Below, piece after piece: positions 33,512 to 61,102 of a DNA stretch of 64,000 nt. How positions within the stretch are numbered: position 1 is the first letter of the stretch; each line of letters begins with the position of its first letter. A program made the position numbers and the translations under genes. This stretch comes from a virus. The stretch spans positions 32,001 to 96,000 of IMG/VR virus record IMGVR_UViG_3300021959_007960. One strand, given 5' to 3'. Under the pieces are notes generated by a model. It searched no databases, was not told the origin of the DNA, and worked only from the letters and a program-made list of their open reading frames with translations.

Positions 33512-33539
33512 ATTATAGGCTAATCTTGAACTTTGTCAA
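33512..33539 (-). promoter_or_regulatory. Consensus sigma70-type promoter upstream of ssb
   Basis: TTGACA-N16-TATAAT on the minus strand. Confidence 0.75.
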
Positions 33540-35137: not shown

Positions 35138-35820
35138 TGTGCAAAAGAATTTCTAAATTTAATCTTTTTGGCTTCATTCCTATGAAGCCTTAAAAACCTA
35201 ATCAACATAGCAGCACAGTCATTGACATCTTTCATAGCGTCATGTGCTCCTTCTTTACTTATGCCTAAATACTCACGCATAGTATCTAGCGAAAGACTTT
35301 TTAAATCTTCATTGTTTTCAAACCAAAGAAACATTAGATGCATTAAATCTATTTTGTCTCTTGGATGAAAAATATTATTGGTTTTATCTTTCCCTACATT
35401 TTTATATTTTAAAGCCATTCTGTCTACTATAGGAATATCAAATCTCAGTATATTATATCCTGCTGCTATTGGAGCAGAGAACATACTTTTACGAGAGCTT
35501 CTAGTGTGATATTTATCTAAGTAGTTAACAAATTGACTCCAAGATTGTTTTTGTGGAGGGAAATTTTGCCAACTGTTTAAGACTTCTGAAGCTGTACTAT
35601 TTTGTGCTTTAGCATGGAACTCTAGTAAGTCGGTTTCGTATTGATGGTCTGGATTCTTATCTAGTAATTCAGGTTTAAGATTTATATTAAACTCAGAATT
35701 AGGGATAACTTCCAATTTATCTGCATCCACCATAACAGCAGCAAGCTGAACAGGGCTACATTGGAACGGATCTTTACCATCTGTTTCAAAGTCAAAAACA
35801 CATATTTTATTTTTTTTCAA
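35134..35820 (-). CDS. DEDDh 3'-5' exonuclease (DnaQ/epsilon-like)
   Basis: FDFETDG, GYNILRFD, AHDAMKD. Confidence 0.9.
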   Translation of the reverse strand: MKKNKICVFDFETDGKDPFQCSPVQLAAVMVDADKLEVIPNSEFNINLKPELLDKNPDHQYETDLLEFHAKAQNSTASEVLNSWQNFPPQKQSWSQFVNYLDKYHTRSSRKSMFSAPIAAGYNILRFDIPIVDRMALKYKNVGKDKTNNIFHPRDKIDLMHLMFLWFENNEDLKSLSLDTMREYLGISKEGAHDAMKDVNDCAAMLIRFLRLHRNEAKKIKFRNSFAQ

Positions 35821-35992
35821 GTCTTGTTACCTCGTCTAAGGGTCGGAATACAGCGTCGGCATTATCTAGCTTTCGTTTTGCGTTACATTTTACTTTACAA
35901 CAGCTAACTCTTACTTCAGGAACCTTTGTGTATTGAGCATTTTGCCCCGGTTTCACGAAGATGTCGTTAATACTTAGATCTTTAAATTGCAT
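35807..35992 (-). CDS. Small Cys-containing hypothetical protein
   Basis: 61 aa filling the gap between dnaE-N and the exonuclease; RBS aaggag. Confidence 0.65.
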   Translation of the reverse strand: MQFKDLSINDIFVKPGQNAQYTKVPEVRVSCCKVKCNAKRKLDNADAVFRPLDEVTRLEKK

Positions 35993-35993
35993 T

Positions 35994-37871
35994 TTATACT
36001 CCTTGTTTTAACATTGAAGATATGTTCATGATTTTATCTAATACCGCTACTCCTAGAATATCAAATTTAATCACTCCAATGTTCTCTAGGTCTTGCATTT
36101 CCATACCAGCTATCAAATTCTTATTTTTGGTATCATATACCATCGGACAAATATTACTTAGTTTTTCTGGAGCAATCACGACTCCAGCAGCATGTTTGGA
36201 TTGATTTGTTTTAGTACCCTCTAGTCTAATAGACTGTTCAAAGCGTTTTGACAAGGGCCCTTGTAGATTTCCTTCTTTATCTATCGAACACCACTCTTTT
36301 AAATCTTTAGCTTTATTTTCTAAAGTCCACTTAATAATAGATGCCTCTCCCTGTTCTTTTTTCATTTCTTCTAACTCATCAGAAATTTTAGCTTCATCAG
36401 GTATGTTTTTAGTAATTTTATTCATGTCTTCAAAAGACAAATTACCATACGCCCTTAAAACATCTTTCAATGCACCTCGACCTTTCATTGTATTAAAAGT
36501 TAACATTTGAGAAACTTTGTCTTCTCCATAAGTTTTTTTAATGTATTCAATAATACCTTCTCTCTTATCAATAGGAACATCTAAATCAATATCTGGCATA
36601 GAAACTCTATCTTTAGTATTTCTACCAGCGTTATAAAATCTATCAAACAATAAGTCGTATTTCATAGGATCAATTGAAGTAATACCCAAAAGGTAAGAAA
36701 CCAGACATCCTGCTGCACTACCTCTACCCGGCCCCGGCAACCAAGAAGAATTTCTAATATATTTAACGATATCTTGTACAATTAAAAAATAACTAGATAG
36801 ACCAGCACCATGCAAAACATCAAATTCATATTTTAATCTGCTGACATATTTATCTTGTATTTGCTTATCTAAGCCATTAAGTTTGTTATTTCTCCAACCT
36901 TCTCTACAAAGTTGTCTTAAATAGTCTGAGTCAGAATCATACTCACTAGGATATTGAAAAGGTGGTAAAATAGGCTGACTAAGAATATTATAATCTTCAC
37001 ACAATTGATCTACAAATATTGTATTTTCTATTTCTTCTTCAGTATGTAAACCATGCATTTCTTCGCTAGATGGTATGTAATACTTGTCACTATTGAAAAA
37101 GCAAGATAATCCAACCTCTATATTATTTTGTAATTTATGATTCACAGCAGATAGAGTTGTTCTCATATTGTTGCACAATAAAATTCTTTGATCTACTGCA
37201 TCTTCTTGTTTTGCATAATGTGCATCGGGTGTGCAGATAACCTTAGTTTGTGTAGAATGTCCAAGCGATCTAATGCTATCAGTAAGTTCAACTTGAATAG
37301 GGTTTGCTATTCTATCTATTAATTGAGCTTCTAAAAATACGTTTTCTTTTCCAAAGATATTATGTAAGTGCGATATGTGGTTTGTTGCGTCTTTCTTCCA
37401 GCTATCACTTATCTTATCTTCGACTACAATACGGTTGGCTAATGTAGAACCTAAATGTCCTGTAATCGCTATAATGTTATCATCTAACAAATCCCCTAAA
37501 GTATCTAAATCCACTCTAGGTTTGTGATAGAATCTATCAGGATGGTTAGACTCTGAAACTATTTTAATTAAAGTTTTCCATCCCTGTAGATTTTTACATA
37601 ATACAACAAGGTGTTCTAGTTTTGCGTTTTCTTTTTTCTTTTCTTTAGAACACTTTTTAGATATGTAAAGTTCACAACCTAAAATGGGTTTGATATTATT
37701 GCTTTTTAATTGTTGATAAAATTGAACGGCTCCAGAGATTGAACCATGATCTGTTATAGCACAAGACGTTGCTCCTATAGTTTTACATCTGTTAACAATG
37801 TCTTTAGGTTTACTTAAACCATCCAATAAAGAATAATGAGTGTGAACATGCAAAGGAGTATATAATTTCAT
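35994..37871 (-). CDS. dnaE: DNA polymerase III alpha, N-terminal half (PHP + palm/thumb)
   Basis: HVHTHYSLLD, TDHG, DAHY, GPGRGSAAG, MPDIDLD, SKHAAGVV, KFDILG. Confidence 0.95.
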   Translation of the reverse strand: MKLYTPLHVHTHYSLLDGLSKPKDIVNRCKTIGATSCAITDHGSISGAVQFYQQLKSNNIKPILGCELYISKKCSKEKKKENAKLEHLVVLCKNLQGWKTLIKIVSESNHPDRFYHKPRVDLDTLGDLLDDNIIAITGHLGSTLANRIVVEDKISDSWKKDATNHISHLHNIFGKENVFLEAQLIDRIANPIQVELTDSIRSLGHSTQTKVICTPDAHYAKQEDAVDQRILLCNNMRTTLSAVNHKLQNNIEVGLSCFFNSDKYYIPSSEEMHGLHTEEEIENTIFVDQLCEDYNILSQPILPPFQYPSEYDSDSDYLRQLCREGWRNNKLNGLDKQIQDKYVSRLKYEFDVLHGAGLSSYFLIVQDIVKYIRNSSWLPGPGRGSAAGCLVSYLLGITSIDPMKYDLLFDRFYNAGRNTKDRVSMPDIDLDVPIDKREGIIEYIKKTYGEDKVSQMLTFNTMKGRGALKDVLRAYGNLSFEDMNKITKNIPDEAKISDELEEMKKEQGEASIIKWTLENKAKDLKEWCSIDKEGNLQGPLSKRFEQSIRLEGTKTNQSKHAAGVVIAPEKLSNICPMVYDTKNKNLIAGMEMQDLENIGVIKFDILGVAVLDKIMNISSMLKQGV

Positions 37872-38911
37872 TCTGTGCTTCCTGGGGCCTTGTAGTGTCC
37901 TATATTATAGCCTGGAACAGTGTATTCGTCAACAGTATTTTTGTATCCTTTTACAGAAATGTCATGAGCCACCTGTTCGCATTTGGTCATAGGAGTATTT
38001 ACAGAACAAACTTGGCCATCCCTATATTCTACCAATGGCTGTATATCGGTATCTTCGAATGTAGTTTTCCCATAATGACACAACTTAGTGCATTTCCAAG
38101 TCTTTTTTAATTCTGGTTTGACAGTATTTTTAATATGTTTAAATTTTTTCTTTAGTAATTCTTCAGTTTTACATAGGTCTTTTTTACTAAACGTCATACT
38201 AAAAGGACCACCATCATTTATAAAATATATAGTTACGATACAATGATCTATTTCAGGATAAAGTTTATTTACTGCATAATAATAAATCATTAGCTGTGGA
38301 TCAATCTCTAATTTTTCTTGCGTCTTTTCCTCTCCGGTCGCCCAATTAAGTCTACGTCCTGTTTTCCAATCAATAATTTCAGCAGTATTTTCGTTTGGTT
38401 TTGTTATTAAGTCAATTGTTCCTTTGATAGATAATTGACCTTCTAGTGGCCCATCTTTCGTGTCATACTTGAATTTAGCCCAAGGCTTATCAATAGTTAT
38501 ATCAAATTGTTGTTCTGGATATAATATATTTTTATTACGAGGATCAAACATTCCATCAGCATAATTAATTGCTTTATATGTCCACTTAGAGCAATCTTTA
38601 AAATCAACATTTGTCCACTTATGATGAGTAAAAGCACTAGTATAATAGGTATATACAGACTCTATAATACCGTCCAAATTGTAATCTTCAACATATACCT
38701 CCCCTACAATATCGTCTGTAAAAGACCGATTACCTTGTTGTTGGTGATACTTAATAAATGCCAAAATTTCTAATACTTTATGTACAATAGTACCCTTGTC
38801 TGCTTTTTTATTAGAAGGAGATCTATACCCTAATACATAATCAAAGAAGTATTGTTGTTCGCACATATTGTGTGTGTTGTAGGATGAACTACGAAAGTAT
38901 GTAATTATAAT
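37868..38911 (-). CDS. Cas4/RecB-like PD-(D/E)XK exonuclease with probable Fe-S cysteines
   Basis: KGTIVH, GTIDLI, IIDWKTG, QLMIY, N-terminal Cys and C-terminal Cys cluster. ORF track starts at 38866 but the frame extends to a likely ATT start at 38911. Confidence 0.85.
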   Translation of the reverse strand: MIITYFRSSSYNTHNMCEQQYFFDYVLGYRSPSNKKADKGTIVHKVLEILAFIKYHQQQGNRSFTDDIVGEVYVEDYNLDGIIESVYTYYTSAFTHHKWTNVDFKDCSKWTYKAINYADGMFDPRNKNILYPEQQFDITIDKPWAKFKYDTKDGPLEGQLSIKGTIDLITKPNENTAEIIDWKTGRRLNWATGEEKTQEKLEIDPQLMIYYYAVNKLYPEIDHCIVTIYFINDGGPFSMTFSKKDLCKTEELLKKKFKHIKNTVKPELKKTWKCTKLCHYGKTTFEDTDIQPLVEYRDGQVCSVNTPMTKCEQVAHDISVKGYKNTVDEYTVPGYNIGHYKAPGSTE

Positions 38912-49537: not shown

Positions 49538-50340
49538 CTAAAATCATATCCTTTAATATTATTGTATTCTTCTAATATTTTTATAGCTTGCAACCTAGAG
49601 CAACGTTCCCCATCATTATGTAAAAGATGAGAAACGTCTTCAACTGATCTTAATGTAGAATCTGGTTTACAAAATATTCCATTATGGTAATGGATAAGAA
49701 ATGGAGGTTTTAAATTTTTTAACACCGTTTCATTTGGTACTCTGCTTAATAAAGGATGATAGATAGGCAGCTTAACTAACCTAGCTGTTATCATCAGATC
49801 GCTAAATTTATGAGCAAGTCTTTCATCTGGATGCGTATTTATAATTTTTGCTAAAGTTTTAGGTTCATATCCTCCTGTTTGAACCTCAAAAAAAGTATCT
49901 AATGTTTTTCTACCTCCCCAAGTATTCAATTTACCCACAGACGAACACCCTGACAGTCTAAAATTTTCATCTGGAATGTCATTGTCTGGAACAAATCCAT
50001 AATTTATTACATCATAGTCTGCCCAGTAGATAAAACCATTCTCTTTGGCAAACTTATAGTAAGCTAACCATCTCATATAGCAAGCTCTCGTATACTCGCA
50101 ATCAAAGTCAAGACTATACTTACATAAAATTGATTCTGAGAAATTATCAAATTTTAAATCAGTATAATATTTTTCATCTTTGATATAATCTTCTGTCAAT
50201 ACATGAGCTTTCCATCCGTTGCTCTCCCAGCTTTGTTTCCAGTATTGAATTAATGGAAAACATTGTTCCGTAAATTTTTTTGTACAATGATTGTTTGTTA
50301 GCTCAGTATAAAAACATGCTACTTTATTGGTTTTACTCAT
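49534..50340 (-). CDS. GT-A-like glycosyltransferase
   Basis: W..SW..NGW, CYMRWLAY, ADYDV (DxD), IHYH. Confidence 0.5.
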   Translation of the reverse strand: MSKTNKVACFYTELTNNHCTKKFTEQCFPLIQYWKQSWESNGWKAHVLTEDYIKDEKYYTDLKFDNFSESILCKYSLDFDCEYTRACYMRWLAYYKFAKENGFIYWADYDVINYGFVPDNDIPDENFRLSGCSSVGKLNTWGGRKTLDTFFEVQTGGYEPKTLAKIINTHPDERLAHKFSDLMITARLVKLPIYHPLLSRVPNETVLKNLKPPFLIHYHNGIFCKPDSTLRSVEDVSHLLHNDGERCSRLQAIKILEEYNNIKGYDFR

Positions 50341-51437
50341 AAGAAATTTTTGTCCTGAGTTTCTTCTGGATGATTAATAAAATCTAGTAACTTGTTTGGT
50401 TCACACAACTTACAACACATCTGACATTTTTCTTTATAGTTCAAAGACCTAACATATTTTATAGCCTCTTTCCGTTGTTCTGAGTACCAAATATCTTTAA
50501 ATGAATCTGTATTAATATTGCCAAAAGATAATTTAGGATCATCAGGATGATACGTACAAACTTTGACATCTCCTGCCGCTGTTAGTATTGGTTCAAAAAA
50601 ATGACCTTCACAACTTCTAAATGAAAAGGCTGTACCGTTTTTCAAGTCTCTTCTTTTGTCATCGCTGAGATTAATCTTAGCCATTTGTTTTTGAGGAAGA
50701 TTATCTAGGTAATCCCAAACCTCTAAATTTATCTCTGCTGTACCAGTTTCTTTGTATGCTGTTTCTGCTTCTTTATAAAACCTGGGAAGTATAGGCCTAA
50801 ATTGTAAATAACATATATTATCACTATTATTAACCCAATTCACTAGATCTTTAGCATGTTGAAGAGTGATATTAGGGCCAACATTACAATTAATACCAAT
50901 ATTACAGCTGCCCATTCCATGCATTGTTTCAATATTTTTTTTAATAATTCTGACACCATCTACCTCTTTCCATTCTTTGTATTTGTCTTCATCCAAAGTA
51001 TCAAGAGATATACGAATCCATTGGAAATTTTCTGCAATCAATCTACAGTACTTGTTTTTGAATACGGCATTAGTCATCATTCCTAGTTCTAATCCAGCCT
51101 CTTTTGCTGAAACAACAGCTTCTTCAAAGTCAGGATAAAACGTAGGTTCCCCTTGACCAGCAAATGTTACTGCTTTCCCTCCCATATCAGCAAAATCTAT
51201 AAAATATTGTTTAAGAGCATTTATACTAATATGTAGTCCTGCCTTATTATCTCTTCCCAATTCTGTAATGCACCAATAGCAAGCCATGTTACACTTATCC
51301 GTTAATCCTATCTCCATAAAAATAGGACAATCAGTATCTCCATTAGTTTGATACTGGTGTAATTTATCTAGATGCAATAACATCTTAGCTTGTGTAGCAA
51401 AGGGATTGTCTCCAGAAAATAAAGTATAATTATTCAT
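50337..51437 (-). CDS. Radical SAM / SPASM domain protein
   Basis: CNMACYWC, GQGEP, TNA, C-terminal SC..VKVC..GNINTDSFKDIW..CQMCCKLC. Confidence 0.9.
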   Translation of the reverse strand: MNNYTLFSGDNPFATQAKMLLHLDKLHQYQTNGDTDCPIFMEIGLTDKCNMACYWCITELGRDNKAGLHISINALKQYFIDFADMGGKAVTFAGQGEPTFYPDFEEAVVSAKEAGLELGMMTNAVFKNKYCRLIAENFQWIRISLDTLDEDKYKEWKEVDGVRIIKKNIETMHGMGSCNIGINCNVGPNITLQHAKDLVNWVNNSDNICYLQFRPILPRFYKEAETAYKETGTAEINLEVWDYLDNLPQKQMAKINLSDDKRRDLKNGTAFSFRSCEGHFFEPILTAAGDVKVCTYHPDDPKLSFGNINTDSFKDIWYSEQRKEAIKYVRSLNYKEKCQMCCKLCEPNKLLDFINHPEETQDKNFL

Positions 51438-52266
51438 TATTGCTTTCTATTATTCTGTCTAGACCTGTAAAAATTGATATGGTTGGTTTGAACCCAAGAG
51501 ACTTTAGCTTAGAAATATCTAAATACATATCTTGAACCTGTACTGTTTTATGAAAATCTGGTGGTGCAATAGTAATCAATTTAGATGTAGAACCCGTTTT
51601 AAATTTTACATATTCAATTAGGGGTCTAAATCTTTGTGGTATACCACTCCCTACATTTATTATAGTATTTGTATCAGCTTTGTCAATGCACAAAGTTATA
51701 GCTTTACACACATCTTTTACATGCATAAAATCACGAATATTTGAACCATCATCATATAATTCAACATCTTCATTAGCAATAACCTTTCGAACCATAAACT
51801 GTAAAGCATTTCTTTTTACGGATACATTAGTTGCATTTTCTCCGTAAACATTACACAACCTTAATATTCTATATTTTAAATTAAAAGTTTCACAATAAGA
51901 TTGAATTAATTGCTCTGCTGCATATTTGGTAATAGAATAAAACCCCTTAGGCTTACAAGTACTGTCTTCATTGGCTGGAAAATCAGTATCTCCATAGACA
52001 AACCACGAGCTTATAAAATTAAAGATGTTATTGGGGCATTTTACTTTAAACTCTTTAAGCACAGAAACTAGTTTAGTTAAGTTTACATCAATATCAAGAT
52101 TAACATTTTCAAACACATTATAGTTATGTGTAGTACTAATAAAATATACGGTATCTGTATTAGAAATTGGCTTATTACTTTCTCTAGATATTTTAAATAG
52201 ATCAGAATCAGAAGAACAAAAATGACTTCCTATAAAACCGCTAGATCCAAATATAGATTTTTTCAT
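51430..52266 (-). CDS. NAD-dependent sugar epimerase/dehydratase
   Basis: GSSGFIGS, ISSWFVYG, YSITK, LRLCNVYG, RDFMHVKD. Confidence 0.9.
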   Translation of the reverse strand: MKKSIFGSSGFIGSHFCSSDSDLFKISRESNKPISNTDTVYFISTTHNYNVFENVNLDIDVNLTKLVSVLKEFKVKCPNNIFNFISSWFVYGDTDFPANEDSTCKPKGFYSITKYAAEQLIQSYCETFNLKYRILRLCNVYGENATNVSVKRNALQFMVRKVIANEDVELYDDGSNIRDFMHVKDVCKAITLCIDKADTNTIINVGSGIPQRFRPLIEYVKFKTGSTSKLITIAPPDFHKTVQVQDMYLDISKLKSLGFKPTISIFTGLDRIIESNNE

Positions 52267-53222
52267 AAAGATAAGACCTTTACATCAAAAGGTATATTAT
52301 ATATTTTACTAGGCCACATAATAAAACTAGATCCCCAAGCATAGCAACTAAACGTAATATTTTTTTTACTATTAATAATAAATTTTAAATCTAAAGCAGT
52401 ATCTCTAAGTGCCGTTTTTTTAATAGGATTTTTAAATTCTGTATATTTTAGCAGGCCCGGACTAGGAGATGTATGAACACTATTGCAATGTAAAACATGA
52501 ATATTTTTATGACGAGAGCCTTCTTCTTGTACAAATTTTTTAAAATCATTAGAGTCTGATAGAACAACAGTATTTTTAAAATTATTTTTTTTTGATTCTT
52601 TTTTAATTAGATAGTAGTAATAATCATAGTCGTGTTGAAACTTTTTTAAGTTATAATTATTTTTAACAATTTCATCTGTGTCTTGTAATTTTTGGTCTAT
52701 GTCTTTTAATGTGTGTCGGTCTCCTAATCTAAAATGAACTATACCATAATCTTGAGGAGATAATTTCTTAAATAATTTATTAATTTCTGAACTAAAAATT
52801 ATGCTATCTTTTACCATACTTATACACTTATCAGATACTGCACTATTGCATATATTTTTTGTTCTGTTTTCAGAAAAATCGTTATCTAAAGCAGAATACC
52901 ACGAAGATACTGTTGCTGGCTTAAAAGAAGAGTCTTCAAATATTGTATTTACAATGTCGTTAAGACCTGTTTCTATTCTTTTTTCATGAGGGATATTTAA
53001 TAAAGAATTTCTAAAGTCCTCTGCATCTATTATATATTTAGTATCGTATTTAGGATATTTATGTTGAGAGTAGATGTATTGACTGATAGCATGATTACTC
53101 CAATCCATACCAACATCTAAACCAAATTTAAGACATATTGTTTGGAGATGGCTTGTTCCTTTTATAAAATCTCCTATACCACCACTGAATTTATCGTGGT
53201 AGCAATTAATAATATCAAACAT
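52263..53222 (-). CDS. Fucosyltransferase-like GT-B glycosyltransferase (NodZ/GT11/GT23-like)
   Basis: GGIGDFIKG, VHFRLGD, LSDS, D.....S, WGSSF. Confidence 0.6.
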   Translation of the reverse strand: MFDIINCYHDKFSGGIGDFIKGTSHLQTICLKFGLDVGMDWSNHAISQYIYSQHKYPKYDTKYIIDAEDFRNSLLNIPHEKRIETGLNDIVNTIFEDSSFKPATVSSWYSALDNDFSENRTKNICNSAVSDKCISMVKDSIIFSSEINKLFKKLSPQDYGIVHFRLGDRHTLKDIDQKLQDTDEIVKNNYNLKKFQHDYDYYYYLIKKESKKNNFKNTVVLSDSNDFKKFVQEEGSRHKNIHVLHCNSVHTSPSPGLLKYTEFKNPIKKTALRDTALDLKFIINSKKNITFSCYAWGSSFIMWPSKIYNIPFDVKVLSL

Positions 53223-53240: not shown

Positions 53241-53489
53241 TTATCTTTTAGTTAACTTATTATATACTAATAGTGCAACTACTGATCCAGCAATTCCTAA
53301 AATGATACCAGCAGGAGCAACTGCGCTTTCTACGCCAAGTAAATATGCCGCCGCACCACCAGCATATGAACCAGCAACACCCAAGCAAATAGTTTGGAAG
53401 AAACCCATTTTTTCTTCGCCGGGGACAATGCTTTTAGCAATAGAACCTACTGCCACACCATAAACACACCATATTAAAATACTAATCAT
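53241..53489 (-). CDS. GlsB/YeaQ/YmgE (transglycosylase-associated) membrane protein
   Basis: W...G...G.IAK.IVPG....G...TI.LGVAGS..GG; three hydrophobic segments. Confidence 0.88.
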   Translation of the reverse strand: MISILIWCVYGVAVGSIAKSIVPGEEKMGFFQTICLGVAGSYAGGAAAYLLGVESAVAPAGIILGIAGSVVALLVYNKLTKR

Positions 53490-53844
53490 TTGCAGCCTCC
53501 ATTAAAGCCTTTGTTTCAGAAAGTGAAATATTGTTACCCACATTTAAAATGGCCGACTCCAATTCGCCCCTATATTTTATATATTGATCTGTACTCATAA
53601 CTTTTCTCATTTCTCTGCGAAGTCTCCATCTTGCCAGAGCTCTTTGATTACAGAATTTTTTCATATCACTATATATATCTTCGGTAGAACTATTTACCTT
53701 ATTACATTCTTGTATAATGCGTATAGCAGTAAAGCACAAACTAAGTACCATTAATAGTGCTATAACACTACCAAATTTTTCTTCTTCTGGTATATTAGTT
53801 TCTGCTAAAATCTTTTTAGAGATATTTTGTAATTCTGTATTCAT
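53482..53844 (-). CDS. Single-TM membrane protein
   Basis: FGSVIALLMVLSLCFTAIRII hydrophobic stretch followed by a basic region. Confidence 0.65.
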   Translation of the reverse strand: MNTELQNISKKILAETNIPEEEKFGSVIALLMVLSLCFTAIRIIQECNKVNSSTEDIYSDMKKFCNQRALARWRLRREMRKVMSTDQYIKYRGELESAILNVGNNISLSETKALMEAAND

Positions 53845-53857
53845 AATGATATTTATG

Positions 53858-54739
53858 TTATATAGTATTTTTATCTGTGTTAGGATACACCGTTTCTGTT
53901 TTTCTTCGATGTTCTAAATACGATTTAATATTATTTAATAATAGTGAATTGTTTATAGCATATAAGTTATTGTCGTCAATTCGTAAATCTGTAGAAGGGG
54001 CAAAATTATATGCTGTTAGTATATTATTTCTGGATAGGTATTTCCTATTGTGTATAGAGCCGTGGAAAAAATGCTCTATTGAACCTTTAGTATAGCCGAT
54101 ATTGCCCTGTACTTTTGACCAACTATCCCAAGCCCACAGTAAAAATTCTTTACGATATTTAAGGTTTAAATCAATAATATATTGATGATTCCATATACCC
54201 ATCCAAGCCATTAGTTGCAACACATCTCCATTACCTACTGGATCACAATCATATAATTTATTGTTCACTAGAATATCTTTTCTAAAAGCCCAACAAAAAC
54301 CGACATGAGGATATGTTGGCTGTTCATGATCGTGTGCAAGTTTAAATCCTAAGCTAGTATTATTATTGTATTCATTTATTTTTGGAGTTTCAAAGCAGGT
54401 GTCAAACATTTGAACTACAGAATATCTATCTAACTGCTTTAATGTATCCTTAGCGAAATGACGACTATAAAACCTAATGTCTGTATCTATCCAAGCTATA
54501 GCCTGAGCGTTGAGGGGTAATGTTTCTATAGCAAGATTAAGACATCTTTCTTTTTGCCAAAAAATATTATTTGGATTAGATCTAATCTTAATACTATCTT
54601 CAATAAAAAATTGCTGATGAGGTAAAGCTACCTCTATTGTTGTTATAGGGTGTGGAAAGTGTTTTCTAAATTTAATATAATTTTCTTTAATCTTAATAGA
54701 ATCACTAAAATTAAAATAAGAGCAAATAAAATGTAGCAT
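53858..54739 (-). CDS. GT-A fold glycosyltransferase-like protein
   Basis: WQKERCLN, WIDTDI (DxD), GFCWAFR, GNGD, HFFHG. Confidence 0.65.
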   Translation of the reverse strand: MLHFICSYFNFSDSIKIKENYIKFRKHFPHPITTIEVALPHQQFFIEDSIKIRSNPNNIFWQKERCLNLAIETLPLNAQAIAWIDTDIRFYSRHFAKDTLKQLDRYSVVQMFDTCFETPKINEYNNNTSLGFKLAHDHEQPTYPHVGFCWAFRKDILVNNKLYDCDPVGNGDVLQLMAWMGIWNHQYIIDLNLKYRKEFLLWAWDSWSKVQGNIGYTKGSIEHFFHGSIHNRKYLSRNNILTAYNFAPSTDLRIDDNNLYAINNSLLLNNIKSYLEHRRKTETVYPNTDKNTI

Positions 54740-55008
54740 TAGTCTCTGATGATTTTAGTTTTTTGAATACCATTTTCAGGTTCGCAATATCCACAATCCA
54801 CTTTAGCTATACCATCTCCACTAATGTACCATCCCTTACCTTTGCATACAGGACAGTCTTTCCTTTTGTATTTTACAGAAATAGCATCGCTAGTTTTTAG
54901 AACAGCACCGCTAAGGCATACTCCTGCCATAGTGGATATTTTGCTTGTGTCAGTGCTTACTGATACTGTAGAGATTAAAGCTAACGCTATAATAGTTTTA
55001 TGAATCAT
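54739..55008 (-). CDS. Secreted/membrane protein with a DnaJ-type CxxCxGxG zinc finger
   Basis: N-terminal signal-like segment; CPVCKGKG...CGYC. Confidence 0.7.
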   Translation of the reverse strand: MIHKTIIALALISTVSVSTDTSKISTMAGVCLSGAVLKTSDAISVKYKRKDCPVCKGKGWYISGDGIAKVDCGYCEPENGIQKTKIIRD

Positions 55009-55175
55009 TTAAACCACCTATCTAAAATATCTTTTAGGGGTTTTCTTCTTTTAGGTTCTGAAGAGTCGTTAGGTGAAAACATTTTTAAAATAGCCAAAAT
55101 AAAATCAGTAATAATTTTAACAAGTTGATTAATTGCTATTTTATCTAAAAAACCTTTATGTTTATTGTCTGTCAT
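55005..55175 (-). CDS. 56-aa amphipathic/cationic peptide (not in the ORF track)
   Basis: MTDNKHKGFLDKIAINQLVKIITDFILAILKMFSPNDSSEPKRRKPLKDILDRWFK; ATGA overlaps at both ends. Confidence 0.75.
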   Translation of the reverse strand: MTDNKHKGFLDKIAINQLVKIITDFILAILKMFSPNDSSEPKRRKPLKDILDRWFK

Positions 55176-56098
55176 AAGTATTCTCCAAATCCGTAATCGG
55201 GTAATTTTTGAGGAGGAAAACCATTGAAATCACTAAAGGCATAAGCCCCGTTTTGTCTAAGCATCCCTTCTGCTACATCGGCATGTATCAAGAAAGAGCC
55301 GTCTGGAATTGGCCCCCATTCAGGATGCCCACCGGAGTTCCATTTACCCCAGCTGTTTTGTACTAAGAATGCTGGTTCTTTACCAGTATCATCACAAGCT
55401 GTCCATGCCATTGCGTGAGCCCATGACCCACTTTTTCGAGCAAATCCAGTACTACTACGTTTATTGGAAAATCCATAACCACTACACACACTTAAACCAT
55501 AGCCATTAGCTAGAGCATCTCTCGCTTCTTCTACAGTTTTGATTAGCGATACTGTTCTAATTTGGTGATCATCTGCTTTATCTACAACTTTATCGGGAAC
55601 TCCCCTACCTCCCCAATTAGTGCCGATCTTACTATTATATTTACTTAAGTTTATAATTCCTGGGTAGTTTTTTCTGACTAATAATCCTCCAGTTTTACTT
55701 ACAAAAGTTGCGGCCCTAGCACAACTCATACCTTGTCCAGTATGACCTCTTGCTCCATAGATTGCTTCTGTTGCCCCTCTAGCAATCCAACTTTCTTTAT
55801 CTCCCTTAACATCTATTTCTACTGCTCTTGTTAAATCGCATCCGTTACGAGTAGCGTGTGAAACACAATCGCCTGTAGTTTGTCTTTCTACATAGGCATT
55901 CTTATCAAACTTTAGTACTGACATAAACGGAGTTGATAGTTTGCCTTTTCCGCTATTTTTAATTCTTTTAGCACCATCTTTAAAATATGCATACTTAGAC
56001 ATCTCTACTAAATCATCAAAAACATGCTGTTCCCAAAGACATCCGCTAAAACCTTTTCTGTATTCGTTATATAGAGCTTCTGGTGTGAACTTAGACAT
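55172..56098 (-). CDS. Papain-like (C1) cysteine peptidase
   Basis: QTTGDCVSHA (oxyanion Gln, catalytic Cys), WAHAM (His), VQNSWG (Asn). Confidence 0.85.
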   Translation of the reverse strand: MSKFTPEALYNEYRKGFSGCLWEQHVFDDLVEMSKYAYFKDGAKRIKNSGKGKLSTPFMSVLKFDKNAYVERQTTGDCVSHATRNGCDLTRAVEIDVKGDKESWIARGATEAIYGARGHTGQGMSCARAATFVSKTGGLLVRKNYPGIINLSKYNSKIGTNWGGRGVPDKVVDKADDHQIRTVSLIKTVEEARDALANGYGLSVCSGYGFSNKRSSTGFARKSGSWAHAMAWTACDDTGKEPAFLVQNSWGKWNSGGHPEWGPIPDGSFLIHADVAEGMLRQNGAYAFSDFNGFPPQKLPDYGFGEYL

Positions 56099-56593
56099 TT
56101 ACTTTGCTCCCTCTAAACAGCCCCAAGCTAAAGCCTGAAATGCTTCTACAGATTTATTTCTTAATGCTTTGTCTAAAGCAACAGAATCTCCAGAGACATG
56201 CTCTTTCACTAATTTGTCACATGCTTCAGCCAATCCCGGATACTTGCCCCTTAAATCAATACGCAATAGTTGTGCAGCTAATACGTTGGCTTCTTTAATA
56301 GTTTCTGTAGTTTTGATAATAGGCTTGTCATCTAGCGATATTAATTTTGACATATCATTATATAATTGTGCCAATCTATATCCATCTTGTTTTCTATCAT
56401 CATCACCTTGCTTAAATTTATCGGCTACATTTTCTGCTAATGTTTTTAATGTAGAATTTGATGGTTCTGGAATATCTAATTCCTCCACAGGAATCACAGA
56501 TGGAACATTAACTATAGGTAGAGAAATATTGGATCTGTTTAATCCTAAGACAATAAATATAGCAATGATAACAAGCAGTATTTTTTTACTCAT
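56099..56593 (-). CDS. N-terminally anchored exported helical protein
   Basis: MSKKILLVIIAIFIVLG signal/anchor followed by a Pro-rich linker. Confidence 0.7.
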   Translation of the reverse strand: MSKKILLVIIAIFIVLGLNRSNISLPIVNVPSVIPVEELDIPEPSNSTLKTLAENVADKFKQGDDDRKQDGYRLAQLYNDMSKLISLDDKPIIKTTETIKEANVLAAQLLRIDLRGKYPGLAEACDKLVKEHVSGDSVALDKALRNKSVEAFQALAWGCLEGAK

Positions 56594-56936
56594 TTTTATC
56601 TTCTTCCTTTGGAACTAAATATGGAAACATTTGATCTGCTATTTCAACAGCTTTATCGGCTCCATAAATCTCAGCTAAATCTCTTGTTTGTTTCCAACTT
56701 TTGATCAATTCAAAAAAGACATCATCTTGTATAGAGTCTGGGTACTCAACATCCACAGGAATTAAATCAGTCTTATTTTTATTATCTTGCCAAGAGTTGA
56801 AATTATTTTTTAGATTATTTACAATTTTATTTATTTGTTCCTGAAATAATACATATAAGACTACAAGTAATCCTGCATAAAGAACAAGATCAACAGTTGA
56901 TAATCCTGCTCCAAAATTTTCTAACGCTTCTTTCAT
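56586..56936 (-). CDS. Single-TM membrane protein
   Basis: LVLYAGLLVVLYVLF. Confidence 0.7.
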   Translation of the reverse strand: MKEALENFGAGLSTVDLVLYAGLLVVLYVLFQEQINKIVNNLKNNFNSWQDNKNKTDLIPVDVEYPDSIQDDVFFELIKSWKQTRDLAEIYGADKAVEIADQMFPYLVPKEEDKNE

Positions 56937-57382
56937 GTCGTCCTCGCTATCTCTGTTAAGTGGTCTAAAAAGTCATTAATTGGTGCTTCAGTAGTAAGTT
57001 CTGTTGTTTTTATCACATTAAACACACCTACATCTTTAAAAGTAGCAACTAAAGCGTCTATAGCTGAATCTACCAAAATCATTAAAATTTTCTTGATATA
57101 GTCATGAATCAAAGACTCTAATGCACTAGGTAAAAATGGTAGGTCAATATGTTCAAAAATTGCATCATAGAAACTATTAATCAGTTCCATAGCCAGTTTC
57201 TTCTTTTCAGCACCGCCTAAATCCGTAGCTATATTTTCAATTACTTGTATTACTGCTGCTGTTAAAAGTTGCAAAATCTTCCATGCTTCTGCTATTGCAA
57301 AGCTCTTAACTTCACCTAAAGATTTTTTACTGGCTTCAATTAATTTATCAATTTCTGCTCGTACCTGATCAGATGTTGTCAT
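56933..57382 (-). CDS. Helical protein with holin-associated GxEKK motif
   Basis: GGAEKKKLAMELI; amphipathic helices. Confidence 0.55.
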   Translation of the reverse strand: MTTSDQVRAEIDKLIEASKKSLGEVKSFAIAEAWKILQLLTAAVIQVIENIATDLGGAEKKKLAMELINSFYDAIFEHIDLPFLPSALESLIHDYIKKILMILVDSAIDALVATFKDVGVFNVIKTTELTTEAPINDFLDHLTEIARTT

Positions 57383-57846
57383 GATTTTTCCTCTACTGTT
57401 AAATACTTTTCTATATCTCTATAAGTTCGTTCACCTATACCATTTACAGACATAAGATCTGTTACATTTTCAAAAGGGCCATTAGCATCTCTGTGTCTAA
57501 TAATTTTTTGAGCCAGAGAAGTGCCAATATGAGGTAGCTGTATTAGTTCTGCAAGGCTGGCACTATTTATATTAACCTCAGAAATGGTTTTGTCAACCCC
57601 TATATAATTTTCTAATTCAGTGCTGATATTTTGTTCTTCTTGTTCTTTTGCTCTTTTTTTAGACATATAGCGAGCAAATACAGCAACTTGGCCTACAATT
57701 AAAATTATGCTCTCTACGGCGTGAGTGACCACGTATGTTAATTCTTCTTTATCGTAGTCACTAATAACGCCAAGTAAAAATAAACCGCTAATTATAAAAC
57801 TTACTATAGTAAACCAAAATTCAGAAGTTTTATATCTTGAGTTCAT
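57379..57846 (-). CDS. Holin-like two-TM protein fused to a ComEA-type helix-hairpin-helix DNA-binding domain
   Basis: YKTSEFW followed by two TMs; VNINSASLAELIQLPHIG..LAQKII..R...GPF....DL..VNGIG. Confidence 0.85.
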   Translation of the reverse strand: MNSRYKTSEFWFTIVSFIISGLFLLGVISDYDKEELTYVVTHAVESIILIVGQVAVFARYMSKKRAKEQEEQNISTELENYIGVDKTISEVNINSASLAELIQLPHIGTSLAQKIIRHRDANGPFENVTDLMSVNGIGERTYRDIEKYLTVEEKS

Positions 57847-57849
57847 TTA

Positions 57850-58083
57850 TCATGCCCCGCCACCGTCGATACCTGAAGCTGTATTGTAGTATGCAACCTC
57901 GTCTAGTCTATTCGTATATGTGGTTTCAACCGTAGCATGTAAAGGAGTATTTACAACATAAGTATCAATAGTTTGATAGATATTACCAGGAACTTTAGAA
58001 GTCCCAATTACAATAGTACCATGCTTAATAGTGTCTGTGCTTGTGACTGCTGACTGTAAAACATCTGTAGTGCTAACTGCCAT
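57850..58083 (-). CDS. Small Thr/Val-rich hypothetical (possible virion) protein
   Basis: 77 aa, RBS gagg. Confidence 0.55.
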   Translation of the reverse strand: MAVSTTDVLQSAVTSTDTIKHGTIVIGTSKVPGNIYQTIDTYVVNTPLHATVETTYTNRLDEVAYYNTASGIDGGGA

Positions 58084-58122
58084 GATTATGCCTCATATGA
58101 GTAAAGTGTGATATATCAATAT

Positions 58123-58132
58123 ATTATACACC
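58123..58132 (-). promoter_or_regulatory. GGTGTATAAT putative phage promoter
   Basis: Intergenic, about 40 nt upstream of the 58083 start; heads the membrane/peptidase operon. Confidence 0.5.
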
Positions 58133-58348: not shown

Positions 58349-58738
58349 TTATGTTCCTGTTACGAAATATACTGTTGAAGGATGCTTTGATCCTAAAGCT
58401 GAATAATCACCAGAACTAATACTAACTATATTAGTAACAATATTACCTCCACCGGCAACTCCTGTGTTACTTAGTAGTTCAGCATTAATGGTTACAGCAC
58501 CTGTTGTGCCACCACCACTTAATCCACTACCAGCAGTTACAGCAGTAATATCTCCAGCACCACCACCCCCAGCAATTAGTCCACTTAAAGAAGAAAAAGA
58601 ATCAGATCCGTTTCCTATTTTTAAGGTTTCTGTATCGGTAGCATACGCTGGTTCTCCGCTAGATAATACTTTACTAGCTAAATTTGATGCTGTATCTCTT
58701 CTTAATTGTATTTTTACCTTGCCATATTCATAAGCCAT
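58349..58738 (-). CDS. Mini tail-fibre/decoration-like protein (Mtd_N/hyaluronidase-N-like N-terminus)
   Basis: IQLRRDTA...GEPAYATDTETLKIGNG; GDITAVTAGSGLSGGG; C-terminal DYSALGSK..TVYFV. Confidence 0.75.
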   Translation of the reverse strand: MAYEYGKVKIQLRRDTASNLASKVLSSGEPAYATDTETLKIGNGSDSFSSLSGLIAGGGGAGDITAVTAGSGLSGGGTTGAVTINAELLSNTGVAGGGNIVTNIVSISSGDYSALGSKHPSTVYFVTGT

Positions 58739-58743
58739 AATAG

Positions 58744-59094
58744 TTACCTTTCGATTCTATTTTCTAGTGCTTCTAAAGTTTTTCCTAAAGTAGCTATTTG
58801 TATTTTGAGTTCTGTCATTACTTCTGTATTTTTTTCTAATGCCCTAAATAATATATTAGTATCTTCTTTATGGCTGTTTAATCTTTCCATAATAAACTGT
58901 CTATCTTTAGCATATTGACTAGCCTGTGCTGTAGCAGCTATCATTTCTTCAACTTCTTTCCTGTTTACTAAGTTTTTAACAAAAGTAGTCCAAAATCCTA
59001 TAAGAGCAATTACAACACTGAACATTGATGTTGTAAAATTTTCAAAAAAATGACCTAATGTATTTGGATCTGGTTCTGACATGTGTTTCTCCAA
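58744..59094 (-). CDS. Single-TM coiled-coil protein (holin/hemolysin-like architecture)
   Basis: MFSVVIALIGFW TM plus C-terminal heptads. Confidence 0.55.
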   Translation of the reverse strand: MEKHMSEPDPNTLGHFFENFTTSMFSVVIALIGFWTTFVKNLVNRKEVEEMIAATAQASQYAKDRQFIMERLNSHKEDTNILFRALEKNTEVMTELKIQIATLGKTLEALENRIER

Positions 59095-60469: not shown

Positions 60470-61102
60470 CTATTTGAGAACCTTATCTGCAAAACCATAA
60501 TACACAGAATCTTCAGCATTTAAAAACCAATCTCCATCTTTTAATTTTCTTTTCAACCAAGCGTTTACTTTTGATATGCTGTCTTTTGTACCTCCATATT
60601 TTTCTTTAAAATATTTACCTTTGTAACAATTGCTTGAATAAATATCAAACATAATATTACAAATATTTTTTTCAAACCTAACCCAATTTTGTACATTCAA
60701 ATATTCTCCATTAGCATCAGTTGTTCCATAATGAGGCATGAAGTAACTATGACGAGACATAATTCTTTCATCAGCAGCTTGTAAAATAATACTACTCATA
60801 CTTTCTGCTTGACCATATACAATAATTTTTACATAAGATTGACACATAGCAATAGCGTCAAAGATAGCCATACCATCCGACCATTCTCCACCAACACTAT
60901 TCATGTGTATAGTAATTTCATCGTTAGATTTTTTCTCTAGTATTTTTATATTCTTTAAAAAAACATTAGCCATTCTATAGTCAACGCCGGGATTTTCTTC
61001 TTCAGATGAGTAATAATTGTGTAAAAATATTTCTCTAGAGTGTAAAGATGCCCCGTAGTTGTGCATATCTTGTAAAATATCTGAATTATTATAATAGTTC
61101 AT
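60470..61102 (-). CDS. clpP: ClpP-family serine protease
   Basis: MNSVGG, GMAIFD, AESMSS (Ser), MPH (His), DWFLNAEDSVYYGFAD (Asp). Confidence 0.88.
   Translation of the reverse strand: MNYYNNSDILQDMHNYGASLHSREIFLHNYYSSEEENPGVDYRMANVFLKNIKILEKKSNDEITIHMNSVGGEWSDGMAIFDAIAMCQSYVKIIVYGQAESMSSIILQAADERIMSRHSYFMPHYGTTDANGEYLNVQNWVRFEKNICNIMFDIYSSNCYKGKYFKEKYGGTKDSISKVNAWLKRKLKDGDWFLNAEDSVYYGFADKVLK

Follow-up and report, generated by a model that had tools for sequence, protein, structure and literature searches.

Gene organization and distribution of the cassette

The window analysed here is a 64,000-nucleotide stretch (positions 32,001 to 96,000) of the IMG/VR virus record IMGVR_UViG_3300021959_007960. 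The original prediction of a chain of abutting or ATGA-coupled genes was borne out: eleven open reading frames occupy positions 53241–58083, all on the minus strand, and neighbours abut or overlap by 1–8 bases (Table 1). Nine of them form a block of fixed order: g155, g149, g116, g164, the peptidase g308, g56, g89, g120 and g82.

Table 1. Positions in the window and predicted character of the genes described, in order of transcription.
Gene	Length (aa)	Position	Strand	Description
g116b	116	58744..59094	-	N-terminal TM helix (hydrophobic segment 21-43) and coiled coil
g77	77	57850..58083	-	Small variable ORF
g155	155	57379..57846	-	Holin-like; two N-terminal TM helices and C-terminal ComEA-type HhH domain
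g149		56933..57382	-	Helical protein with G-x-EKK motif; weak likeness to LL-H-type holins
g116		56586..56936	-	N-terminal TM helix 8-35 and conserved C-terminal domain
g164		56099..56593	-	Signal-anchored (N-in, C-out) helical-bundle protein directly upstream of g308
g308	308	55172..56098	-	Papain-fold (clan CA, C1-like) cysteine peptidase, core enzyme, without export signal
g56	56	55005..55175	-	Amphipathic cationic peptide; hydrophobic helix and basic tail; ATGA overlaps at both ends
g89		54739..55008	-	Exported DnaJ-type zinc-finger-like protein with signal-like N-terminus
g293	293	53858..54739	-	Variable insert, originally called a GT
g120		53482..53844	-	Single-TM protein (TM 22-47); weak likeness to LL-H-type holins
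g82		53241..53489	-	Small GlsB/YeaQ/YmgE-type membrane protein

Presence was counted over 80 related IMG/VR loci, many of which end at contig ends. Core genes were found in 63–80 of these with the order unchanged; 49 loci have the full set of nine and 60 have eight or more. The synteny check proposed with the original prediction thus showed the cassette to be real and syntenic. It belongs to a widespread family of large (about 190–230 kb) uncultured marine and freshwater phages, and in lineages at 35% identity the peptidase still sits in a small operon of its own, among genes for membrane and exported proteins. No published description of the cassette was found in the literature. As hints to the host, DUF1501 genes occur in two relatives and MAG bins are labelled mainly Flavobacteriales.

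The small first ORF of the predicted chain, g77, exists, but is variable (31/80 loci, 41% identity, no Pfam or PHROG family matched) and is probably not a core component. The supposed GT, g293, gave no match in Pfam and PHROG searches and was excluded from the cassette as a variable insert because it occurs in just six of the 80 loci, its site elsewhere being empty or filled by other genes. The motif GGTGTATAAT, noted ahead of the chain, is not supported as a repeated motif and does not belong to the conserved unit; it is not enriched over chance (one exact copy; five copies with one mismatch versus 7.3 expected). Outside the predicted stretch, g116b (no Pfam or PHROG family matched) was found always upstream of the cassette in 39/80 loci at 64% mean identity, many loci stopping short of its position, and is a possible further member of the module.

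The peptidase

Residues Q73, C78, H228 and N248-S249-W250 of g308 are either invariant or conserved at 90% or more among 40 diverse homologues (30–50% identity). The catalytic motifs are intact in 79/79 loci, in none of which was an N-terminal hydrophobic segment or export signal present. A g308 profile matched caricain (2e-6), xylellain (2.4e-4) and cathepsin K in the PDB. The AF2 model (pLDDT 91.7) has a papain fold, and a Foldseek search with it gave xylellain (3ois, 5e-8) as the best match, followed by actinidin and cathepsins; weaker structural matches were mycobacteriophage LysA and phage proteins fused to peptidoglycan-binding or muramidase domains. Homologues, profile and model bear out the C1 peptidase with intact Gln, Cys, His and Asn: g308 is a genuine papain-fold enzyme. 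The Pfam C1 model (PF00112) stayed below its gathering score, with a best E of 3.6e-4 and matches in 9/40 family members, and did not match the window protein itself.

The family comprises 2205 close homologues (1424 clusters at 50% identity), seen in phage contigs only, beside membrane proteins; it has no GenBank phage match and no named or characterised member. With 81.5% identity to the relative G001, g308 ranks second in conservation among the proteins of the window, after RNR (86%) and ahead of RecA (71%) and DnaE (62–66%). Inteins occur at all three catalytic residues among its homologues. The enzyme is under very strong purifying selection, and this conservation together with the inteins looks like the pattern of a core enzyme; endolysins are usually far less conserved.

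Anchored and exported partners

The two membrane-anchored proteins of the original prediction, g116 and g164, have one hydrophobic segment each. The former is present in 77/80 loci, its sole match being a sub-threshold one to Flp1_like over the TM helix. Of 76 g164 homologues, all have K/R ahead of a TM helix and two have a lipobox. The g164 model (pLDDT 89.4) is all-helical, and a fold search with it gave no informative match.

In eleven fused homologues of 490–800 aa, an N-terminal TM anchor with K/R on its N side leads into a g164-like domain and then the peptidase; the g164 family aligns to residues 45–161 of these proteins (hhalign probability 99.1, E 1e-18). Another peptidase homologue, P0127, begins with an RRxFL Tat-type signal, and the gene downstream of it encodes a lipoprotein with WCGPC and Thioredoxin_7 on record. 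Given the Tat-type signal of one lineage and the exported thioredoxin lipoproteins (WCGPC) encoded behind the peptidase, the family would act outside the cytoplasm; the host envelope is the most likely site of action of g308 itself, and g164 is the predicted periplasmic partner of the enzyme. The g164–peptidase fusion in other lineages, the Tat form and the exported thioredoxins are among the new findings here.

The exported zinc-finger protein g89 was likewise confirmed by its signal-like N-terminus and by a CxxCxGxG motif with a further CxxC behind it in 75/75 homologues; family searches gave weak Anti-TRAP and Lar matches only. At the g89 position, loci L081 and L084 encode a protein with a signal peptide, a similar Cys-rich stretch and a CGFC or WCGPC thioredoxin-like domain, and L106 a lipoprotein WCGPC thioredoxin (Thioredoxin_7 on record). 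In position, g89 thus corresponds to the exported thioredoxins that other lineages encode. The predicted 56-residue amphipathic peptide, g56, is kept in 63/80 loci with its N-terminal helix and K/R-rich C-terminus conserved.

Holin-like proteins

Every holin assignment in the cassette lies below the family threshold. In g155, described as a holin-like/ComEA fusion, TM helices were placed at 7–32 and 38–58 and the tail matched HHH_3 (E 6.7e-21), while Phage_holin_1 gave only E 0.095. The two-helix part is kept in 72–73/80 loci; the fusion holds less generally, with the HhH tail present in 23/72 homologues (about a third) and 47/72 being 135 aa or shorter. The positive-inside rule places the HhH domain in the cytoplasm.

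For g149 (75/80 loci), sub-threshold Phage_holin_6_1 matches came from homologues in two complete relatives (E 4.7e-4 and 0.0155). In the nearest named Atlas cluster 23% of members carry this family (score 0.81), no more than a lead. The Tat-signal lineage, too, has a g149 homologue (blastp 1e-9). The predicted TM protein, g120 (70/80 loci), does have one hydrophobic segment, and its homologue in the relative G003 matched Phage_holin_6_1 over positions 8–95 of 101, below threshold (E 0.0049). The GlsB/YeaQ assignment of g82 (71/80 loci, 63% identity, overlapping the end of g120 every time) agrees with a Transgly_assoc match of E 6.7e-5, which at 23.5 bits falls just short of the 25.3 cutoff. 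The GlsB family is listed in TCDB as a putative holin family (1.E.43) of unknown function (PMC6281302).

Search for other lysins and spanins

No lysozyme, amidase or M15/M23 enzyme had been recognized in the window, which proved true for the ORFs scanned; no lytic domain was found in the tape measure or the other large tail ORFs. The proposed search for canonical endolysins was carried out with Pfam models over six-frame translations of five complete (CheckV-100%) relatives, not of this genome; two of the five have terminal repeats. None of 19 peptidoglycan-hydrolase or wall-binding families was found at E <= 0.01 (Phage_lysozyme, Phage_lysozyme2, Lysozyme_like, SLT, GH19, GH25, GH108, Muramidase, Glucosaminidase, Hydrolase_2, Amidase_2, Amidase_3, M15_3, M15_4, VanY, M23, NlpC/P60, CHAP and PG_binding_1), where the GH19, GH108 and Muramidase models gave no match in any control genome and a muralytic enzyme of divergent or new type could escape a Pfam-based search. 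The same search did detect DUF1501, thioredoxin and weak holin matches in the relatives' records. A search of the five relatives for prohead proteases of the HK97 type (S78) and the T4 type (S77) found none. No spanin pair or spanin-like lipoprotein was found in this lineage, going by the rarity of a lipobox among the g164 homologues.

Proposed function

The original interpretation, a peptidase in the endolysin slot of a lysis operon, is partly supported; the protein-rich or atypical host envelope suggested with it is speculative. The cassette may be how these phages burst the host, and from sequence and model we give about even chances to g308 being the lysis enzyme of a holin-dependent module. 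In this lineage the signal-less g308 would build up in the cytoplasm until the inner membrane is opened late in infection by the holin-like g155, g120 and g82, and possibly g149. It would then enter the periplasm, dock on g164 and cleave a peptide bond on which the cohesion of the envelope depends, either in peptidoglycan stem peptides or cross-links or in wall-forming or wall-tethering envelope proteins. The thiol-oxidoreductase-like g89, once exported, could keep or make the catalytic Cys reduced in the oxidising periplasm or reduce substrate disulfides, and the cationic g56 may help to break the outer membrane.

Lysis is favoured by the conserved active site and papain fold, by synteny, by the holin-like neighbours g155, g149, g120 and g82, and by the extracytoplasmic forms (the eleven fusions, P0127 and the exported thioredoxin-like neighbours). 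It is also favoured by the want of an alternative lysin family in the five relatives, by the same fold in LysA and in phage proteins with peptidoglycan-binding or muramidase domains, and by late-type neighbours: a ClpP-type protein with a PHROG match to head maturation proteases (phrog_94, 3e-27) five genes upstream and tail-fibre-like gene(s) just upstream. Against it stand the conservation above the usual endolysin level and the inteins, nearest folds that are true proteinases and not peptidoglycan-cleaving NlpC/P60 or CHAP enzymes, the lack of a spanin pair or lipoprotein in this lineage, the sub-threshold holin assignments and a direction shared with the downstream replication and nucleotide-metabolism genes. 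The absence of a lysin moreover rests on relatives, where a divergent or novel one could be missed, and g308 and g164 would be kept apart by the membrane until this is opened.

Several of these objections would suit a non-lytic remodelling of the envelope, in which an exported or released peptidase and its membrane partners process host or phage envelope proteins during infection, for example in receptor destruction, superinfection exclusion, trimming of periplasmic defence or stress proteins, or maturation of a phage membrane complex. The extracytoplasmic forms and partners, the proteinase folds, the core-enzyme-like conservation with inteins, the direction shared with replication genes and the lack of spanins all agree with this reading, which we nevertheless consider unlikely: lacking an export signal in all 79 loci, g308 would reach the envelope only after the membrane opens, a lysis-type event, the neighbours are holin-like and not transporter-like, and the five genomes yielded no other lysin.

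Alternatively, an unrecognised muralytic enzyme could lie elsewhere and g308 do a second lysis job, cutting outer-membrane-to-wall tethers (Lpp, OmpA or Pal-type) instead of spanins or activating host autolysins. The proteinase-type fold and the lack of a detectable spanin point this way, a novel lysin is compatible with the Pfam-based result, and a preprint (bioRxiv 10.1101/515445) reports that ~15% of phages lack spanins and use other outer-membrane disruptors. With the 19 families absent from the five genomes, no lytic domain in the large tail proteins of the window and no second candidate enzyme in the cassette, we regard such an accessory role as quite unlikely.

A cytoplasmic regulatory or counter-defence protease, cutting host or phage proteins in deubiquitinase-like or host-takeover style beside unrelated membrane proteins, would fit the missing signal peptide, the very high conservation and the occurrence of deconjugating enzymes among papain-like enzymes (PMC10318531). 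It is very unlikely given the relatives fused to a signal-anchored periplasmic partner, the Tat-signal form, the exported thioredoxin neighbours and the strict gene order with stop and start codons overlapping those of membrane-protein genes. A prohead or tail maturation protease or a virion-borne enzyme is highly improbable because relatives that are anchored in the membrane or exported through Tat cannot function within a capsid and a ClpP-type candidate for head maturation lies nearby; the cassette and the tail module are also ~80 kb apart in G001, set against the nearby tail-fibre-like genes and the failure to find S78 and S77 proteases.

Comparison with known systems

With the papain family (MEROPS C1, PF00112) g308 shares the two-lobed fold and the order Gln, Cys, His, Asn-Ser-Trp, and with its nearest solved structure, xylellain from Xylella fastidiosa, an N-terminal extension of ~70 residues before the catalytic Gln. 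It differs in having neither a signal peptide nor an I29-type propeptide, and TM-scores to papain-family structures are only about 0.5–0.6 at 12–18% identity. Endolysin domains of clan CA (CHAP, NlpC/P60 and the N-terminal peptidase domains of mycobacteriophage LysA) likewise combine a papain-like core with Cys-His nucleophile chemistry; their known targets are the stem peptides or cross-bridges of peptidoglycan (PMC10318531, PMC3314691). In contrast to these, g308 has the full two-domain C1 fold instead of the minimal NlpC/P60 core and no cell-wall-binding domain, and the CHAP and NlpC/P60 Pfam models are unmatched in these genomes.

Like the holin–endolysin–spanin cassettes of lambda (S-R-Rz/Rz1) and T4 (t/e), the present one is a coupled cluster with a signal-less soluble hydrolase amid proteins of one or two TM helices, its position is conserved across relatives and no other lysin was found in the genome (five relatives). 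Unlike them, it has holin-like proteins below threshold, no i-spanin/o-spanin pair or lipoprotein, and an enzyme of no known muralytic family that is much more conserved than typical endolysins; the signal-anchored docking partner, the exported zinc-finger/thioredoxin protein and the GlsB-type protein are extras. By analogy only, with no sequence relation claimed, g56 may be likened to the phiKT gp28 'disruptin', a cationic peptide that replaces spanins (bioRxiv 10.1101/515445): g56, too, is cationic, as well as amphipathic, and its gene lies within the cassette of a phage without detectable spanins.

The N-terminal anchor of the fused relatives would hold the enzyme at the periplasmic face, as in the SAR endolysins P1 Lyz and phage 21 R. 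These are lysozymes and not cysteine peptidases; g308 itself has no anchor, a domain of ~120 residues and a linker separate anchor and enzyme in the fused forms, and release of the latter from the membrane is putative. P1 Lyz is activated by disulfide isomerisation, which the tie of the cassette to thiol–disulfide proteins recalls. The soluble, membrane-anchored and Tat-exported forms of one catalytic domain would mirror the canonical and SAR forms of lysozyme-type endolysins.

Sequence sets and searches

Synteny was assessed on 80 IMG/VR loci (contigs of up to 232 kb) encoding the peptidase at 73-98% identity. Lysins were searched for in five relatives, taken in place of the window's own genome, all of which are 100% complete according to CheckV and two of which have terminal repeats. 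The 19 Pfam families used were the glycosidase-type families Phage_lysozyme, Phage_lysozyme2, Lysozyme_like, SLT, GH19, GH25, GH108, Muramidase, Glucosaminidase and Hydrolase_2, together with Amidase_2, Amidase_3, Peptidase_M15_3, M15_4, VanY, M23, NlpC/P60, CHAP and PG_binding_1.

Fold, active site and family of the peptidase

The 308-residue product of g308 was aligned with its homologues (40 sequences, 30-50% identity). Cys78, His228 and Trp250 are invariant, and Gln73, Asp77, Ser80, Asn248 and Ser249 are kept in at least 90% of the sequences. The papain set Gln/Cys/His/Asn-Ser-Trp occurs in the papain order and is fully preserved in each of 79 related loci. Comparison of the alignment profile with the PDB retrieved caricain (2e-6), cathepsin K and xylellain. 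The AlphaFold (AF2) model (pLDDT 91.7, pTM 0.90) shows the two-lobe papain fold preceded by a helical extension of ~70 residues; the top 50 Foldseek matches in the PDB are all C1 peptidases, the best being xylellain (3ois; 5e-8, TM 0.53-0.60). The C1 peptidase with intact Gln/Cys/His/Asn of the original prediction is therefore retained, and from its fold and catalytic set g308 is predicted to work like a C1 papain-family enzyme. C1A peptidases typically have a secretory signal and an I29-type inhibitory propeptide, whereas g308 has neither (no Pfam match to the propeptide).

PF00112 gave no match to the window protein at E <= 0.1 and Peptidase_C1_2 only one at E 0.18; nine of the 40 homologues match PF00112 (best E 3.6e-4). 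Since it lies below the Pfam C1 gathering threshold, g308 is best filed as a separate, unnamed sister family within the papain-like superfamily. The family comprises 2205 close homologues (1424 clusters at 50% identity), and no named homologue was found in any source searched. Nothing was retrieved from GenBank phages by tblastn of the peptidase (50,697 records) or by blastn of the cassette. The window DnaE has GenBank phage relatives at only 30-35% identity, so that there is no cultured relative from which annotation could be borrowed.

In comparison with the complete relative G001 (230,691 bp), identity of the peptidase is 81.5%, second in the window after the ribonucleotide reductase (86%) and ahead of PhoH (76%), RecA (71%), DnaB (66%) and DnaE (62-66%); for its neighbours in the cassette the values are 35-65%. 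Many homologues contain inteins with LAGLIDADG or Hint domains. The three insertion sites found all adjoin catalytic residues: one immediately precedes Cys78, which is then the +1 residue of the intein, and the others immediately follow His228 and Asn248. The carriers are P0121, P0122, P0126, P0129, P0130, P0140, P0144, P0151, P0158 and P0186, some with two inteins.

Organization of the cassette and its surroundings

The gene chain described in the original prediction is present as 11 minus-strand ORFs at 53241-58083, each adjoining the next or overlapping it slightly. The features of the window and of related loci are collected in the table.

Features of the window and of related loci (positions refer to the window unless another record is named)
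Feature	Position	Strand	Remarks
Tape measure	404-9049	+	2881 aa, PhageMin_Tail (Pfam)
Split DnaE (DNA polymerase III alpha)	33536-37871	-	Two genes, both matching phrog_405
Exonuclease gene	37868-38866		Just upstream of the DnaE N-terminal half
Sugar-modification island	50337-53222	-
g82	53241-53489	-	Eleventh in transcription order
g120	53482-53844	-	Tenth
g293 ('GT')	53858-54739	-	Ninth
g89	54739-55008	-	Eighth
g56	55005-55175	-	Seventh
g308, peptidase	55172-56098	-	Sixth
g164	56099-56593	-	Fifth
g116	56586-56936	-	Fourth
g149	56933-57382	-	Third
g155	57379-57846	-	Second
g77	57850-58083	-	First
Mtd_N protein	58349-58738	-	129 aa
ClpP-fold protein	60470-61102	-	PHROG head-maturation proteases, phrog_94, 3e-27
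Insert between g308 and g56	L024:6981-9300	+	Two ORFs, 263 and 505 aa
Thioredoxin-fold protein	L117:1492-1857	-	In G005; 121 aa
DUF1501, L113	G005:149282-150409		E 1e-107
DUF1501, L114	G002:216035-217162		8e-103

Apart from g155 and g82, no cassette protein, the peptidase and the 'GT' included, was assigned to a Pfam or PHROG family. The order g155-g149-g116-g164-g308-g56-g89-g120-g82 is constant throughout the 80 loci, so the synteny in relatives by which the cassette was to be judged is kept. Each of the nine core genes occurs in 63-80 of these loci; 49 loci have all nine and 60 have eight or more, with many loci cut at contig edges. The remaining two ORFs are not part of the core. The gene read as a glycosyltransferase (g293) occupies a variable insertion point in six of the 80 loci, and the leading small ORF (g77), taken as a cassette member, varies among related loci. 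g308 and g56 are separated by a second variable insertion point, occupied in L024 by two fibre-like ORFs with a common N-terminal motif; gaps matching this insert site are also present in L065 and L079. GGTGTATAAT, considered as a repeated promoter motif, is not supported as such, no enrichment being found in the window. Matches from sigma-70 promoter and terminator scans were no better than chance.

Upstream of the cassette a string consisting of the ClpP-type protease, g218, g174 and g116b (a 116-residue protein with a transmembrane helix and a coiled coil) is conserved. The ClpP-fold protein is remote from the tail genes and lies five genes upstream of the cassette. The Mtd_N protein (tail-fibre N-terminal domain; Pfam 2.5e-14, phrog_31660) stands alone amid non-structural genes and is variable between relatives. 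The sugar-modification island encodes an NAD-dependent epimerase/dehydratase, a protein of the radical SAM/SPASM type and a 319-residue protein of no assigned kind. Its genes occur in just 1-5 of the 80 loci, which marks it as a recent strain-level insert adjoining the cassette.

The window belongs to a large tailed phage, and the length of the tape measure implies a very long tail. DnaB, primase, RecA, PhoH, class II ribonucleotide reductase, dCMP deaminase and a sigma-70 region-4 protein are also encoded. The two halves of DnaE cover positions 43-616 and 622-1077 of the phrog_405 model, with a 228-residue ORF in between. The exact stretch was recovered from estuary, marine, seawater and sponge metagenomes, in at least seven studies besides possible source samples.

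Membrane and exported neighbours

By hydropathy g155 has two transmembrane helices, its N-terminal part being the conserved one, and residues 89-150 match HHH_3 (PF12836, ComEA-type; 74.6 bits against a cutoff of 27, E 6.7e-21). Only 23 of 72 homologues have room for this tail and 47 are too short. The holin-like/ComEA fusion originally described thus stands as to its two helices and its HHH_3 match, while the helix-hairpin-helix tail falls outside the conserved part and is an accessory domain. Phage_holin_1 matches g155 below threshold (E 0.095). Phage_holin_6_1 gives sub-threshold matches (E 4.7e-4 to 0.0155) to the g149 homologue in two genomes and to the g120 homologue in one; in the Atlas search it is also the named cluster nearest to g149, with a score that serves as a lead only.

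Hydropathy supports the two membrane-anchored proteins, with one helix each in g116 and g164, and gives one helix in g120 and two or three in g82. The latter matches GlsB/Transgly_assoc (PF04226) over 48 of 49 profile positions just below the cutoff (23.5 against 25.3 bits, E 6.7e-5). GlsB/YeaQ/YmgE proteins are classed as putative holins (TCDB 1.E.43), the holin function of the family itself being unproven (PMC6281302).

g89 has a signal-like N-terminus, and CxxCxGxG, a motif of DnaJ-type zinc fingers, is found together with a second CxxC behind it in 75 of 75 homologues; the best Pfam matches were only Lar (0.024) and Anti-TRAP (0.061). No thioredoxin motif is present in the g89 homologues of the window lineage, where g89 occupies the position that thioredoxin-like proteins hold in other lineages. 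A thioredoxin-fold protein with a signal peptide and CSYC is encoded in the complete relative G005 ~25 kb from the cassette, and an exported redox protein may accordingly exist in the window lineage at another site. A lipobox was found in two of 76 g164 homologues and in none of the window cassette proteins.

Where the peptidase acts

11 homologues of 490-800 residues consist of an N-terminal hydrophobic anchor with Lys/Arg on its N side, a further domain and then the peptidase. The g164-family profile aligns to residues 45-161 of these fusions (probability 99.1%, E 1e-18), which identifies the gene just upstream of the window peptidase as its fused partner elsewhere; Pfam found nothing in their N-terminal parts. 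Lys/Arg followed by a transmembrane helix occurs in 76 of 76 g164 homologues, and by the positive-inside rule g164 is predicted to be a signal anchor with its domain outside. The g164 model is a confident helical bundle; fold searches gave nothing below E 0.4 (Foldseek) and Z values of at most 7.0, within helical-bundle noise (VIA-align). Complex prediction for g308 and the periplasmic portion of g164 scored 0.00, which is evidence neither way.

The homologue P0127 starts with an RRxFL twin-arginine-type signal. On its contigs the next gene encodes a WCGPC lipoprotein with Thioredoxin_7 on record, and g149 and g164 homologues lie upstream. In L081, L082 and L084 (~35% identity) the peptidase has a small operon of its own. 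Two small membrane proteins and then a lipoprotein or signal-peptide protein precede it. The gene behind it encodes a protein with a signal peptide, a stretch rich in Cys and a thioredoxin-like domain of the CGFC, CGPC or WCGPC kind (sub-threshold in Pfam), and the operon ends with two small products, of which the second has a C-terminal transmembrane helix. The lipoproteins of L081 and L084 were considered as g164 relatives and rejected, homology to g164 not being detectable.

On the grounds of the anchored fusions, the g164 topology, the Tat-type signal and the exported thioredoxin-like or Cys-rich neighbours, we hypothesize that the family acts beyond the cytoplasm, assisted by a thiol-redox helper. 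With the fused and signal-bearing variants this localization is open to direct test. None of the 79 peptidases of the window lineage has an N-terminal hydrophobic segment that could act as a secretory signal, so that the enzyme would have to wait for the membrane to be opened.

Search for another lysin and host hints

None of the 19 families matched the five complete relatives at E <= 0.01, the tests for GH19, GH108 and Muramidase being weak as these matched no control genome. The same search detects other families in these records, namely DUF1501 (1e-107), thioredoxin (7e-16) and weak holin matches. In the window no lytic domain was found in the tape measure or the large tail ORFs, and no cassette protein belongs to a muralytic Pfam or PHROG family. 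The earlier statement that no endolysin is recognizable in the window agrees with these results, and for the relatives it extends to complete genomes.

Full-length DUF1501 proteins are encoded by two of the five complete relatives; they may hint at a host among PVC bacteria, planctomycetes for instance, but fall short of host evidence. A single-protein scan of genome contigs returned only phage contigs binned into MAGs (L097-L104), labelled Flavobacteriales (twice), Aureispira, SAR202, Dehalococcoidia, 'Promethearchaeota' and an unclassified bacterium. Their binning is likely an artefact of bin contamination and is not host evidence.

Function of the cassette

The most economical explanation of these sequence data is a lysis module, to which we give an even chance. 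It would account for a signal-less hydrolase amid holin-like membrane proteins in genomes of a family where no other lysin was found, and for a catalytic domain that occurs in soluble, anchored and Tat-exported versions as in lysozyme-type endolysins. We go no higher because the peptidase is conserved like a core enzyme, unlike a typical endolysin, because its nearest folds are proteinases and not wall amidases, and because a spanin is absent. The same conservation and folds would suit a non-lytic, envelope-processing role, which we consider unlikely; if not the lysis enzyme, the peptidase would be a core envelope-directed protease in one of the commonest large aquatic phage groups. Lower still we place an accessory part in lysis beside a lysin that the 19 families fail to recognize. 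A regulatory protease in the cytoplasm would fit the missing signal and is improbable, being hard to reconcile with the anchored and Tat-exported relatives. A virion protease is the least credible: the prohead proteases S78 (HK97-type) and S77 (T4-type) were not found in the five complete relatives (S77 matched no control genome either), but the same relatives of the peptidase speak against it, as does the head-maturation protease of ClpP type that is encoded five genes upstream.

The lysis-module reading can be carried further to the whole family. The unnamed phage papain-fold peptidases (~1400 clusters at 50% identity) could form a protease-based lysis system that uses a docking partner and an exported thiol-oxidoreductase, does without a peptidoglycan glycosidase or amidase and exists in soluble (holin-dependent), membrane-anchored and Tat-exported versions; we put this forward tentatively, as a possibility with the odds against it. 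Such enzymes might themselves cleave peptides of the wall or envelope proteins joined by disulfides, or might trigger host autolysins. An abundant, globally distributed phage family has no recognizable muralytic enzyme, yet keeps a highly conserved papain-fold peptidase that is tied to partners in the membrane and in redox chemistry. Were this peptidase the lysis enzyme, endolysins would gain a catalytic class and a regulatory logic (docking partner, thiol control) that are new to them, the failure of endolysin finders on these genomes would be explained and new enzymes would become available for envelope biology. A protease-based system would add a fourth enzymatic class to the endolysins and would be a major way out of the host, so far unstudied, for abundant aquatic phages.

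Comparison with known lysis systems

Gram-negative phage lysis is classically carried out by a holin, a muralytic endolysin and a spanin. The g308 cassette resembles holin-endolysin-spanin cassettes in layout and differs from them in having no enzyme of a known muralytic family and no spanins, neither an inner-membrane protein with an outer-membrane lipoprotein nor a unimolecular spanin. No lipoprotein is encoded in the window cassette; in the ~35%-identity lineages, lipoproteins are encoded immediately before the peptidase. Its matches to holin families (g155, g149, g120 and g82) are all sub-threshold. SAR endolysins carry an N-terminal signal-anchor on the enzyme, which is absent from g308 and all 79 close loci but present in the 11 distant fused homologues. 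Lysozyme-type endolysins likewise exist as soluble, membrane-anchored and Tat-exported versions. Cysteine-peptidase endolysin domains are known in the form of CHAP, NlpC/P60 and LysA N-terminal domains. In the literature searched, a lysis cassette with a C1-type peptidase was not found described, and beside these domains a C1-type lysis enzyme that works with a docking partner and is helped by a redox protein would extend an already known kind of enzyme.
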